64,000 nt of DNA from a bacterium (GTDB taxonomy: Bacteria; UBA8248; JACPRG01; G963555815). Positions 1 to 4,895 of this stretch are shown piece by piece; the stretch's first letter is position 1, and the number at the start of each line of letters is the position of its first letter. Location: assembly GCA_963555815.3 (NCBI GenBank), contig CAUVWX020000001.1, positions 832,001 through 896,000 of the forward strand, read 5' to 3'. The notes beneath the pieces were generated by a model, which saw nothing but the letters and a program-made list of their open reading frames with translations, was not told where the DNA came from and ran no database searches. Made by a program: the position numbers and the translations under genes.

Positions 1-13
1 ACAGGAGGTCTTT

Positions 14-487
14 ATGAGGCTCAACAACGGTGACCTACTCCCAAGTGTTAGCGGTCCTACTGCGGGCGGGGGAAGTCTGACGATCCCCGAATATTTGAAA
101 CAGGAATGGAATATTGTCCTTTTCTATCGAGGTCACTGGTGACATTTCTGCAATCTGCAGTTTGCAGACTTCGTTGGACACGGCGAAGAGTTTGAAAAGG
201 CGAGCATCGGCATTGTCGCACTATCGGTCGATGGGGAGGAAGACACTCAGAAAATGGTGGAAAAGAACAAGATCGGTTTTCCGGTCATTTACGGGCTGGA
301 CGTGAGGAAAGAAGCCGAAAAGATCGGCGCTTATTTTGACAGTGAGAAGGGTTACCTTCACCCCGCCAACTTCATCGTGCAAAAGGGTAGAGTGATCAAC
401 GCAACCTACTCCAGCGGTCCGTTAGGCCGCCTTCAGGCCCAAAATGCGCTCATGCTCATCAACCACTATCGCGGACAGGCAAAATAG
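14..487 (+). CDS. AhpC/TSA (peroxiredoxin-like, thioredoxin-fold) protein, probable selenoprotein with UxxC motif, 157 aa
   Basis: AGGAGG at 3-8, ATG at 14; frame reads MRLNNGDLLPSV...VLFYRGHW(TGA 140-142)HFCNLQ...IVALSVD... and continues in frame into track ORF 254..487. FYRGxWCPxC is the AhpC/TSA signature and TGA occupies the first Cys position. Confidence 0.88.
154..168 (+). promoter_or_regulatory. Putative bacterial SECIS hairpin
   Basis: TCTGCA-GTT-TGCAGA stem-loop starting 11 nt after the TGA at 140-142, with G first in the apical loop. Confidence 0.65.
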
Positions 488-729: not shown

Positions 730-1323
730 TCAATACTTCCTCAAGACCCCAACCACGACCCCCTGGATCTGCAGGTCGTTCTCCTTTAGCACGATGGGGC
801 TCATGGATGGGTTCGCGGGCTGAAGGCGGATGTTCCCGTTTTCCCGGTAGAACCGCTTGAGCGTCGCCTCTTTCCCCTGCAGGAGCGCCACGACTGTCTC
901 CCCAATCTCCGCCGTCGACTGCTCTTTGACGATGACGTAGTCCCCGTCCTGAATGTGGTCCTCGATCATGGACTCTCCGCGCACCTGAAGAACGTAGAGG
1001 TCTTTGGCCCCCGCCTCGGTCCAGGGAAAGGTAATGGTCTGCGGATCGACGATAGCCTCAAGGGGGCTCCCGGCGGCGATGTAACCGAGGAGGGGCAGAC
1101 CCGCCGTCTCCGTCCTCTCCAGGACCTCGATAGAGCGGCTTCGATTCCAGCCCCGCTTGATGAGGCCCTTTGAAATGAGGTTCAGGATGTGCTTGTGGAC
1201 TGTTGCCGGCGACGTCAGGCCGAATGCCTTGCCAATCTCATGAAGGCTGGGCGAATAGCCTTTCTCCTTGATGAAATTCTTGACGAAATCCAGGATCTCG
1301 CGCTGTCTCCTGGTCAGATACAT
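730..1323 (-). CDS. lexA: LexA SOS transcriptional repressor
   Basis: MYLTRRQREILDFVK..GYSPSLHEIG winged HTH, Ala-Gly cleavage site (IAAGSP), catalytic Ser (GESM) and Lys (ATLK); start moved to ATG at 1323. Confidence 0.96.
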   Translation of the reverse strand: MYLTRRQREILDFVKNFIKEKGYSPSLHEIGKAFGLTSPATVHKHILNLISKGLIKRGWNRSRSIEVLERTETAGLPLLGYIAAGSPLEAIVDPQTITFPWTEAGAKDLYVLQVRGESMIEDHIQDGDYVIVKEQSTAEIGETVVALLQGKEATLKRFYRENGNIRLQPANPSMSPIVLKENDLQIQGVVVGVLRKY

Positions 1324-1397
1324 CGCATCTCTCCCGTTTCGAAGAAACCTTTTGGTCTCTTGTGATCTTGAAGGGGTCTGAACTTTTTCTGTGTAGA

Positions 1398-1425
1398 ATC
1401 TTAGCGAAACCGAAACGAAAGTCAA
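1398..1425 (-). promoter_or_regulatory. Sigma70-type promoter of lexA
   Basis: Minus strand TTGACT-N16-TAAGAT. Confidence 0.6.
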
Positions 1426-1460
1426 GACAAAAAATTGGGCCCACCCAAGATTTAGCTGGC

Positions 1461-1507
1461 TTGACAAGCGAGAAATCAGGATATACCTTATAGGGGTATA
1501 GGGTATA
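1461..1507 (+). promoter_or_regulatory. csoR operon promoter with CsoR operator
   Basis: TTGACA at 1461-1466, TACCTT 17 nt later; overlapping pseudo-palindrome TATACC-TTATAGG-GGTATA (1482-1500) of the ATACC..GGGGTAT CsoR-box type, plus an extra AGGGTAT half site. Confidence 0.75.
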
Positions 1508-1523
1508 AACTAAGGAGGCCCCA

Positions 1524-1793
1524 ATGATTGACAAAGAGACCAAACAGTCGGCCCTTGGCCGCTTGAACCGGATTGAGGGGCAAATCCGCGGGTTGAAGGG
1601 GATGGTGGAGGCCGAGAAATACTGTATCGACGTCATCCATCAGGTCAACGCCGCCCGCCGGGCCCTGGAGCAGGTCGCCCTCCTGGTGATGAAGCGCCAT
1701 CTGAAGAGCTGTGTCTCTGGGGCCATCCAAGAGGACGACGGTGCCGGGAAGGTCGAGGAGTTCATGGAAAGCATCGACAAGTTCATCCGGTGA
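1524..1793 (+). CDS. csoR: CsoR/RcnR family copper-sensing repressor
   Basis: RLNRIEGQIRG..YCIDV..HLKSC with Cys-His-Cys ligands; AAGGAGG RBS; upstream of copA. Confidence 0.93.
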   Translation: MIDKETKQSALGRLNRIEGQIRGLKGMVEAEKYCIDVIHQVNAARRALEQVALLVMKRHLKSCVSGAIQEDDGAGKVEEFMESIDKFIR

Positions 1794-1823
1794 AAGGCCC
1801 CTTTACGAGGAGGAGGGAGAGCC

Positions 1824-2372
1824 ATGAAGAGGATCTGGATATTATTGGTATCGGTCACAATGATTTTGGGAAGCACCAGCTACGCCTTAGCCGGGGACCG
1901 AAGGACAATGGGCCCTGGGATGATGGGAATGGGCCACGGCATGATGGGGACTGGGATGATGGGCTTTGGTCCTGGAATGATGGGAATGGGCCACGGCATG
2001 ATAGGGCCTGAGATGATGAGGTTCGGTCTTGGCGTCGACCTAACCGAAGATCAGAGGGAACAGTTGACCGACCTCCGGGTCCGGTTTATTCAGGAAAGTG
2101 CCGACATTCAGGCTGAGCTAATCCGGTCCCAAGCGGCCCTCCAGACACTTCTCATCGATCCATCTACCCGGGATGAGGCCATTGAAGCCAAGGTACAGAA
2201 GGTCGCCGCCGCTCAGGCCCGACTCTTCGTCCTGCGAGTCCAGATGAAGCGTGAGATGCAAGAAGTGTTGACGGAAGAGCAGCGCGAGCAGATGATGCGT
2301 GGCTTCTTCCAAGGCCAGAGGCCGACAGCCCCCCATGGCGCGCCAAGGGGCCCCAGGATGCCGGGACGCTAA
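1824..2372 (+). CDS. Periplasmic Spy/CpxP/ZraP-like protein with Met/His/Gly-rich N-terminal region
   Basis: Signal peptide, two LTxxQ motifs (LTEDQ, LTEEQ), MGHGMM repeats. Confidence 0.85.
   Translation: MKRIWILLVSVTMILGSTSYALAGDRRTMGPGMMGMGHGMMGTGMMGFGPGMMGMGHGMIGPEMMRFGLGVDLTEDQREQLTDLRVRFIQESADIQAELIRSQAALQTLLIDPSTRDEAIEAKVQKVAAAQARLFVLRVQMKREMQEVLTEEQREQMMRGFFQGQRPTAPHGAPRGPRMPGR
1911..2024 (+). repeat. Imperfect 57-nt tandem duplication within CDS
   Basis: GPGMMGMGHGMMGTGMMGF / GPGMMGMGHGMIGPEMMRF. Confidence 0.85.
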
Positions 2373-2444
2373 AGCACTTCTCGCAGGCGCCGTTGAGAGG
2401 AAGGCGGCATTCCTAGAAGACTGCCATGAACTGCAGAGGACAAT

Positions 2445-4895
2445 ATGGATGACACCCCCATTAAAGACCACGCCCACATAAGCGGCGGCGGAAAGACAAA
2501 AGACCCCGTCTGCGGGATGGACGTTCAGCCGGAGACTGCCGAACACCGGTACGATCACGATGGCCACACGCATTTCTTTTGCAGCGGCCATTGCCTGCAT
2601 AAATTCCGCCAAGACCCTGCCAAGTATTTAAATTCCTCGCCAGCCGCACGATCTCAACCGGTGGATGTGAAGGGGACATACATCTGCCCGATGGACCCTG
2701 AAGTGCGCCAGGAGGGTCCTGGCTCATGTCCCAAGTGCGGCATGGCCCTCGAGCCGGAACTCGTGACAGCCCCGGCCGTTAAGACAGAGTACGTCTGCCC
2801 CATGCACCCGGAGGTCGTCCAGGGTGAGCCGGGGTCATGCCCCATATGCGGGATGGCCCTTGAGCCCCGCATCGTGACCGCGGAAGAAGAGAACCCAGAG
2901 ATGGTGGACATGACCCGGCGTTTCTGGGTCAGCGTGCCCCTGGCGGCCTCGATCCTCTTCCTCTCCATGTCGGACTTGATACCAGGACAGCCGATTCAGC
3001 GCGCGATTCCACCGCTTCTTTTGGGATGGATTCTGCTGGCGCTTTCCACACCAGTCGTGCTCTGGGGCGGAAAGCCTTTCTTTGAGCGCGGTTGGACCTC
3101 CATCGTCAACCGCAGTCCCAACATGTTCACGCTCATCGCCATTGGCGTCGGCACGGCCTATTTCTACAGCGTGGTCGCTACCCTATTTCCGGGCATCTTC
3201 CCAGACGTGTTCCGCGGCGAAGGGGGTGAGGTGGCTGTCTACTTCGACGCAGCCGCGATGATCATCGCCCTGGTCCTTCTGGGACAGGTGCTGGAGTTGC
3301 GCGCCCGCAGCCGGACCAGCAGCGCCATCAGGGCACTGCTCGGTTTTTCGCCCAAGACGGCCCGGGTAATTCGCGAAGACGGAAACGAAGAGGATATCCC
3401 ATTGGATCAGATCCAACGGGGAGACCGACTTCGGGTCCGTCCCGGCGAGAAGGTGCCGGTGGACGGGAACGTCCTGGAGGGTGTGAGTTCCGTGGACGAG
3501 TCCATGGTGACCGGTGAGCCGATCCCGGTGGAAAAAGCCCCGGGTGGCCGGGTCATCGGAGGGACCGTGAACGGGACGGGCGGGTTTGTGATGAAGGCGG
3601 AGCGTGTGGGCAGCGAAACACTCCTCGCGCAGATTGTCCAGATGGTGAGCGAGGCCCAACGGAGCCGCGCTCCCATCCAGCGTCTGGCGGATGTCGTTTC
3701 CTCTTACTTTGTTCCGGCAGTCGTCCTTGCGGCCATCGCGACATTCATCATCTGGGGTCTCATTGGACCTGAGCCTCGGATGGCCTTCGCCCTGGTCAAC
3801 GCCGTGTCGGTTTTGATCATCGCCTGCCCGTGCGCATTGGGGCTGGCGACGCCGATGTCCATCATGGTGGGGACGGGCCACGGGGCAACTGCCGGTGTGC
3901 TAATTAAGAACGCCGAGGCCCTCGAAATTTTGGAGAAGGTGGACACGCTGGTCGTGGACAAGACCGGGACACTCACAGAAGGCAAGCCCCGTCTGACCTC
4001 GGTGGTGGCCCTCCCGAATAAAAACGATTCAGAAGTCCTGCGCCTGGCCGCGAGTCTGGAGCGGGCCAGCGAACATCCCCTCGCCGCGGCCATCGTGGCC
4101 GGGTCGAAGGAGAAGGGGCTGGAACTCTTCGACGTTGAGGATTTCCGATCCGTCACCGGGAAAGGAGTAGTCGGAAAGATTCAGAAGCAGATCGTGGCCC
4201 TCGGCAACCTGAGCCTTCTTAAAGAATTGGAAATTCCTGCCGGAGATCTGTTGGAGAGGGCGGAAGCGCTGCGAAGGGAAGGCCAGACCGTGATGTTCCT
4301 CGCCGTGGACGGACGCCCGGCCGGACTCCTCGGTGTCGCGGACCCGATCAAAGCGTCTACGCCAGAGGCGATCCGGGCGCTCCATCGGGAGGGAATCAAC
4401 ATCGTCATGCTGACCGGAGACAGCCAAACCACCGCTGAGGCAGTGGCCCGCCAGCTCGGGATCGATGACGTGAAATCGGAGGTGCTGCCCGCGCAGAAAG
4501 GCGAGGTGATCAAGAGACTTCAATCAGAGGGCCATGTGGTGGCGATGGCGGGCGACGGCATCAATGACGCACCCGCCTTGGCCCAGGCCCAGGTCGGCAT
4601 CGCCATGGGGGCGGGCACGGACGTGGCCATTGAAAGCGCCGGGGTGACGCTGGTGAAGGGCAACCTTCGCGGCATCGCCCGGGCCCGCCGGCTCAGCCGG
4701 GGGACGATGCGCAACATCCGGCAGAATCTATTTTTCGCCTTCATCTACAACTCGCTCGGAATCCCCCTGGCGGCGGGCGTCCTTTACCCAGTATTCGGCC
4801 TGCTCCTCAGCCCTATCATCGCCAGTGCGGCGATGACCTTCAGCTCAGTGTCCGTGATCACCAACGCCTTGCGCCTCCGGGGGCTGAACCTCTAA
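2445..4895 (+). CDS. copA: Cu(I)-translocating P1B-type ATPase with YHS and two heavy-metal-binding (CPMxP) domains
   Basis: DPVCGM/FCS..C YHS domain, YxCPM(D/H)P..CPxCGMAL x2, TGE, CPC, DKTGT, SEHP, GDGIND, YN and MxxSS motifs. Confidence 0.96.

Follow-up and report, generated by a model that had tools for sequence, protein, structure and literature searches.

Selenoproteins of a peroxiredoxin-like (Prx-like) family in which a thioredoxin-like UXXC motif replaces TXXU are described in the relevant passages of PMC1088965, where the published Sec-peroxiredoxins are of the TxxU type. In the 2008 analysis of the GOS dataset 225 selenoproteins are counted as 'Prx-like 1' (pfam00578, UxxC), and in the accessible text of its Dataset S1 the string YRGHW occurs 24 times, with passages under the 'Prx-like 1' header, and one read carries both FYRGHW-U-xxC and YSSGPLGR (PMC2398784). 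The same Prx-like family is reported from several deltaproteobacteria in the section of PMC1794560 that deals with it, and the entries in PMC13188914 and PMC9312934 give a 'Prx-like thiol:disulfide oxidoreductase, PF00578, UxxC/UxxU' that is predicted and not experimentally verified, the family representative in such entries being WP_010940744.1. A first-pass annotation of the DNA analyzed here had stated that Sec-containing Prx-like proteins are known as a class, and the listing of the family in the parts of PMC1088965 and PMC2398784 cited above agrees with this. Predicted selenoproteins of this family were published no later than 2005, which makes the find described below an ordinary one.

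The gene studied lies at the start of a 64,000-nucleotide stretch of bacterial DNA, referred to throughout as the window. Its predicted product carries U43-H-F-C46, that is UxxC in place of TxxU, and places it in the 'Prx-like 1 / Prx-like thiol:disulfide oxidoreductase' family known from the literature (PF00578, UxxC/UxxU), as judged from PF00578, UxxC and motif reading against the GOS sequences. Reading of the window sequence gave a single frame of 157 codons at 14-487 (+), interrupted once, by TGA, with the following features.

3..9, + strand: Shine-Dalgarno sequence AGGAGGT (from the sequence)
14, + strand: start ATG of the gene (from the sequence)
14..487, + strand: complete 157-aa gene across the UGA, predicted to encode an AhpC/TSA-fold Prx-like UxxC selenoprotein (from frame, Pfam and fold)
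140..142, + strand: in-frame UGA, codon 43, very probably Sec and the N-terminal residue of UxxC (from TGA conservation and CxxC homologues)
254..487, + strand: 77-aa C-terminal fragment from standard gene calling, without the active site
485-487, + strand: terminal stop TAG (from the sequence)

The ribosome-binding site, the ATG at 14, the lone TGA at codon 43 (context FYRGHW*HFC), the 114 sense codons after it and an inverted repeat had all been pointed out in the first-pass annotation and are all present in the sequence. A GGAGG-type site also lies upstream of the start in most homologous loci. Gene calling was said to leave a 77-aa piece, and this corresponds to ORF 254-487; NCBI, Logan and ENA all hold exactly this sequence. 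Among the 73 homologues recovered by a word-indexed search, similar fragments of 87 to 116 aa make up the majority.

Codon 43 was TGA, and never TAA or TAG, in all 23 close loci (73-90% identity), these being the window gene and 22 further loci from genome and metagenome scans with the partial L059 (37%) left out. Conservation at the protein level was observed on both flanks of the UGA and included residues 44-80, between the UGA and the start of the called fragment. A distant tandem pair of genes in class relatives (30-43% identity, L025-L052) had TGA at the same site in 54/54 genes, and among distant homologues CxxC was found in 69 of the 79 representatives with a readable motif (149 representatives examined, 68 without a readable motif and 2 ending at the Trp before the site). 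TGA or Cys at codon 43 with conservation on both flanks had been put forward as the pattern to look for in homologues, and it is the pattern observed (TGA 23/23, CxxC 69/79). Relatives that are all Cys-coded with decay of the downstream part, named beforehand as an argument against Sec, contrast with the close loci, which instead keep TGA (23/23). UGA codon 43 is very likely read as Sec, giving a protein of 157 residues; the earlier proposal of a UGA decoded as Sec within U43xxC46 thus appears very likely in view of the conserved UGA, the selABCD genes and hairpin described below and the Cys in homologues. The closest homologues (73-76%, L054-L058 among them) come from records titled Deltaproteobacteria or Acidobacteria or named NC10, and the homologues in class relatives reach only 30-43%; horizontal transfer of the gene between lineages is plausible from these sequences.

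Three hairpins downstream of the UGA were considered.

154..168, + strand: predicted bacterial SECIS, 5-bp stem UCUGC/GCAGA with loop AGUUU (conserved, fits bSECIS geometry)
147..168, + strand: competing hairpin, 147-153 paired with 162-168, which excludes the SECIS fold (from RNA folding)
169..188, + strand: second hairpin, 8 bp, loop GACA, 34 nt from the UGA, -9.1 kcal/mol

Eleven nucleotides separate the TGA from the inverted repeat TCTGCA-GTT-TGCAGA (154-168), which is also the spacing of the fdhF SECIS. Across 22 loci (L090, which ends before the stem, left out) the 5-bp stem was intact in 21, the exception being the decayed copy L086, with a loop of AGUUN across homologues and a UGA-to-loop distance of 16 nt. 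The hairpin had originally been drawn with six pairs around a GUU loop; its position and five of its pairs were upheld (21/22), but the sixth pair, an A-U pair closing the 3-nt loop, is present in only 9/22 loci and broken in 13/22. The six-pair reading was therefore replaced by one in which the conserved part consists of five pairs and an AGUUN loop. All four codons with the third base in the stem or at the loop G were invariant in 18 distinct full-length loci (the decayed L086, L081, which is the same as L080, and the partial L088-L090 not being counted), compared with only 4 of 57 other invariant-residue codons in the same loci; because these loci share descent and the comparison was framed after inspection, this invariance is support and not a probability. 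Variation was seen at the third position of codons 46, 50 and 52, each outside the stem or at the loop end, and the synonymous invariance of Phe45 fits the competing hairpin and not the SECIS. Covariation was absent within the clade, the stem being invariant and the same bases being also under protein constraint.

A hairpin filter, with thresholds chosen after the 154-168 hairpin had been seen, was applied to three sets. Of the 526 long ORFs that end in TGA, 31 were followed by a match (5.9%), and of the 3418 internal Cys codons, 313 (9.2%); among candidate Sec genes of the genome, hand-picked by HMM span or redox motif and including the window gene, 8 of 10 had one. Such hairpins are therefore common after ordinary TGA and Cys codons and the hairpin alone is weak evidence; it rises above chance because the TGA (23/23) and the 5-bp stem (21/22) are conserved. 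The bSECIS model, as set out in the relevant section of PMC13188914, combines a loop of 3-9 nt, a stem of 4-16 bp, a G in loop positions 1-2 and a spacing of 16-37 nt with an energy of -7.5 kcal/mol or lower. The 154-168 hairpin agrees with criteria i-iii of the model (loop AGUUU, 5 bp, spacing 16), and in isolation it has an energy of -5.7 kcal/mol versus the -7.5 of the model. The hairpin at 169-188 fits the same model on paper, but all 8 of its pairs are found in only 3/22 loci and it was rejected as the SECIS.

Region 140-200 folds at -19.1 kcal/mol in a register other than that of the SECIS stem, and in free RNA the pairing probability is 0.93 for the competing hairpin versus 0.04 for the SECIS stem. 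The footprint of a ribosome at the UGA covers about the next 11 nt. When +1..+11 after the UGA were masked the probability of the SECIS stem rose to 0.92, and the stem was part of the minimum-energy fold in 14/22 loci, not in all. A ribosome at the UGA, by covering about 11 nt downstream, may thus remove the competing hairpin and allow the 154-168 stem to form, whereupon SelB carrying Sec-tRNA would bind the AGUUN loop and insert Sec in competition with RF2. Failure of Sec insertion would yield a 42-aa dead product, and synthesis of the protein would in that case track selenium supply.

The positions of the read-through protein that bear on its chemistry are as follows.

128..130, + strand: Arg39 of FYRG, at the site of the Prx active-site Pro (from profile alignment to 2cx3)
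149..151, + strand: Cys46, the sole Cys, opposite the Prx peroxidatic Cys and predicted as the resolving residue (from alignments)
362..364, + strand: Pro117, at the site of the Prx catalytic Arg (from profile alignment and column counts)
407..430, + strand: YSSGPLGR motif, residues 132-139, a family signature common to GOS 'Prx-like 1' sequences

Pfam PF00578 (AhpC-TSA) matched residues 6-129, spanning the UGA, with 66.2 bits against a cut-off of 26. The AlphaFold2 model of the read-through protein, with Cys modelled in place of Sec, had a pLDDT of 95.7, and its best Foldseek matches were peroxiredoxins or BCP (2cx3, 3hjp, 3tb2 and 5ovq; TM 0.82-0.85), indicating the presence of a Prx fold; BCP 2cx3 was also the best profile hit (E 1e-21). 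Among the profile and Foldseek structure matches none was the solved structure of a family member, and in NCBIfam no family reached its cut-off for the read-through protein, the best Prx-type score being 28 bits versus 211. In the predicted secondary structure U43 just precedes helix 44-55. The first-pass annotation had placed the UGA at the catalytic Cys of peroxiredoxins, and this assignment had to be given up: on alignment to BCP 2cx3 and Prx 6q5v, R39 falls at the Pro, U43 at the Thr/Ser, C46 at the peroxidatic Cys and P117 at the catalytic Arg, and the protein has R39xxxU43xxC46 instead of the PxxxT/SxxC of a true peroxiredoxin. Arg39 was present in 54 of the 56 alignment rows with a residue there. 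The column of residue 117 held P in 33, A in 24 and S in 10 of 70 rows and never R, so that the catalytic Arg before the beta strand is absent at 117 from all 70 aligned rows; the position of Pro117 is the cis-Pro site of thioredoxin folds. With Sec43 at the Thr/Ser site, Cys46 at the peroxidatic site and Arg replaced by Pro117, the motif is to be read as a thioredoxin-like UxxC. In the alignment used for the Arg39 count, G138 and R139 were each at least 90% conserved. As there is no visible signal or membrane segment, the protein is likely to be cytoplasmic.

The main job of the protein is probably thiol-disulfide chemistry, as a thioredoxin-like oxidoreductase on a Prx scaffold. Placed where the active-site helix begins, the selenolate of Sec43 would attack a target at a disulfide or at another oxidised sulfur; the resulting adduct would be resolved by Cys46 to an internal Se-S bond, and a cellular reductant would restore the enzyme. 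With the same Sec read-through the protein could alternatively be a peroxidase, a possible but rather unlikely function in which H2O2 or organic peroxides are attacked directly by Sec43, with Arg39 in the role of the missing Prx Arg and Cys46 as the residue resolving the selenenic acid. The top fold matches listed, all peroxiredoxins or BCP, together with the profile hit to 2cx3 (E 1e-21), the near-constant Arg39 (54/56) and the Prx-type C-terminal Gly138-Arg139 (at least 90%), are consistent with such an activity, and selenolates react fast with peroxides without the Prx triad. However, other residues stand at the sites of the Prx Pro, Thr and Arg, the scores stay far below every Prx family cut-off (28 bits at best versus 211) and Cys-only homologues keep CxxC with the same replacements, indicating that the arrangement is independent of Sec; the passages of PMC1088965 on this motif likewise term UxxC thioredoxin-like. 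A broader form of this proposal, on which the Prx-like 1 family as a whole would be a rewired selenium peroxidase with Sec at the Thr site attacking the peroxide, Arg39 in place of the Pro and standing in for the lost Arg, the old peroxidatic Cys resolving and the SECIS masked until the ribosome arrives, is doubtful; on it, the resolving Cys would itself have been swapped for Sec several times in relatives.

Such swaps are seen in the tandem pairs of same-subfamily genes carried by class relatives, mostly of family f2 (L025-L052). Paralogue A had UxxC in 27/27 cases, while paralogue B had UxxU in 15 and UxxC in 12 of 27, amounting to five changes of motif on a quick tree, at least three of them forced. 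A second hairpin at +28..+45 was present in all UxxU genes and in the nested UxxC ones, and absent in L030, L031 and L046. Exchange of Sec and Cys at the second motif position is as expected if both positions are redox-active, and the UxxU form is already listed for the family in the published entries cited above.

Were the UGA a true stop, the locus would be a pseudogene or would yield only 42-aa and 77-aa pieces, which is very improbable. Gene callers do report the fragment alone, and a close relative holds a decayed copy (L086:867-1304) in the same WD40, lexA and copper-ATPase neighbourhood, demonstrating that the gene can be lost in this lineage. That copy has a stop at R39, has lost C46, has a broken SECIS stem and carries a frameshift near the end; it serves as a natural control in which the stem is gone together with R39 and C46. 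The same codon is nevertheless TGA and never TAA or TAG in 23/23 loci down to 73% identity, residues 44-80 are conserved as protein, and the UGA lies inside a single Pfam domain and a single confidently predicted fold.

The host genome (G000, 2.08 Mb, 95.7% complete) was found to encode the corresponding machinery, as had been expected of an organism with this gene (selABCD). Profile scores were 576 bits for selA, 367 bits for selB, which adjoins selA, and 338 bits for selD, all over their cut-offs, selD itself having an in-frame TGA, and a tRNA-Sec with anticodon UCA scored 73.6 bits, also over cut-off. Of 50 class relatives 48 had selA, and the genomes of the other two are 79% and 67% complete; of 10 outside controls 2 had it. 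TGA terminates 526 of 1010 long ORFs in G000 and RF2 is present; UGA outside Sec genes is a stop in this genome.

It is less probable again that the UGA is read as another residue, either Cys by a selC*-type tRNA or Trp/Gly by a changed code. A tRNA-Cys with UCA anticodon is known from some bacteria, selC* having U73 according to the part of PMC5389517 that describes it, and G000 contains, beyond the window, a further gene resembling tRNA-Sec (L016, G000:C1:678548-678636 (+)), which at 50.4 bits is over the Rfam cut-off and was missed by ARAGORN. This second gene has the anticodon UAA and cannot read UGA. The only UCA tRNA among the 50 called by ARAGORN is the one called tRNA-Sec, with a 3' end of G-CCA versus the U73 of selC*; a normal tRNA-Trp(CCA) is present, a single selB is over cut-off, and the use of TGA as terminator with RF2 described above also stands against a changed code. 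Inspected by eye, L016 has an 8-bp acceptor stem with one mismatch, a 4-bp T stem, a long D stem with a 4-nt loop, a long variable arm and apparently A73. It resembles overall the 8/4 allo-tRNAs described in PMC5389517, but in that description Leu anticodons belong to the 9/3 type and base 73 is G or U. The first-pass annotation had named raw reads with TGC or TGT as a finding that would speak against Sec. An error of this kind in sequencing or assembly is refuted: codon 140-142 is unchanged in whole-stretch contigs of three other runs (three studies, one of which may be the source), and 22 other loci have TGA.

G000 contains 15 AhpC-TSA matches, six of them with an in-frame TGA, the window gene included, and is thus rich in such genes. 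Other candidate Sec genes were located at C2:498129(-), C1:628154(-), C1:572890(-), C2:591939(+), C1:251247-251678(+), C1:613365(+), C1:994249(+), C2:590433(-), C1:1028120(-), C1:582574(-), C1:522249(-) and C1:712847(-). The types comprise Prx-like, TlpA-like, redoxin, two deiodinase-like, two AhpD-like, Grx-like, heavy-metal-binding, rhodanese-like and others, labelled by eye apart from five PF00578 hits. These candidates point to a total of at least a dozen selenoproteins for a genome of 2.08 Mb. A de novo selenoproteome derived by hexamer score gave 528 candidates, mostly noise, and was discarded. A SCO-like thioredoxin-fold protein at G000:C1:575042-575281 (-) (L074) has an in-frame TAG at a non-catalytic position, either a nonsense mutation or an error.

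Within the window a GC-rich 8-bp inverted repeat without a T tail lies at 512-530, between the selenoprotein gene and a convergent lexA-like gene. Neighbours at 730-4895, named by eye from their translations, are this lexA-like repressor (-), a CsoR-like regulator, a Spy/CpxP-like protein with a Met/Gly-rich stretch and a copper-type P-ATPase. A conserved operon was considered and rejected: in 17 loci inspected the WD40, lexA and copper-ATPase neighbourhood was found only in the nearest relatives L053 and L086, and in the remaining loci the selenoprotein gene adjoins unrelated genes. With no conserved gene neighbour among these loci, context points to no substrate. A promoter scan gave one weak sigma-70-like site approximately 40-70 nt upstream of window base 1, its 9/12 matches being near chance. 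RNA contigs from two of three RNA runs cover parts of the 3' half only (250-402 and 233-381); no UGA-spanning contig was present in the three runs, and the contigs show neither transcription, strand nor level.

The main value of these data is an annotation fix, the databases holding the gene and its orthologues as fragments of 77 to 112 aa without the active site. One clean member is added to a family that, in the published entries on it, is so far only predicted. Its small size, its single domain with one Sec and one Cys, and the existence of natural relatives of the CxxC, UxxC and UxxU types would make the protein a convenient test case for the function of Prx-like selenoproteins. For a selenoprotein specialist there is no surprise.

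Comparison with described systems can be made at the level of both the hairpin and the protein. With the minimal E. coli SECIS, the sequence of which is printed in the relevant part of PMC10945757, the hairpin shares a position in the coding region just after the UGA, a UGCA-containing stem and a G then U in the loop. It differs in having no bulged U, a 5-bp stem and an AGUUN loop, so the earlier description of the element as 'fdhF-like' holds only in a loose sense, for the shared UGCAG..U..UGCA core but not for the bulged U or the loop. The protein, judged from its sequence, is outside both the true peroxiredoxins and SelL. BCP/PrxQ and Prx6/AhpC (2cx3, 3hjp, 3tb2, 5ovq) share its fold (TM 0.82-0.85) and place their peroxidatic Cys opposite Cys46, whereas Pro is replaced by Arg39, Thr/Ser by Sec43 and Arg by Pro117, with an identity of 16-26%. 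The Sec-peroxiredoxin PrxU (TxxU; NF040737) has the same fold, Pfam family and an active-site Sec, but there Sec is at the peroxidatic, C-terminal position of the motif and in the window protein at the N-terminal one, and the latter scored 19.9 bits versus a cut-off of 270. SelL-related redox proteins (NF040769) and SelL (UxxU) share a Prx-like fold and a U/CxxU/C motif, and class relatives carry a UxxU paralogue as in SelL; with 28.1 bits (E 1e-6) versus a cut-off of 120 the window protein is not a member of NF040769. The 'Prx-like 1' group, which as delimited in PMC2398784 is broad and takes in less similar proteins, differs in having PY and not HF between U and C, and shares with the window protein the PF00578 domain, UxxC, bacterial Sec machinery and, by motif reading of the available sequences, both YRGHW-U-xxC and YSSGPLGR.
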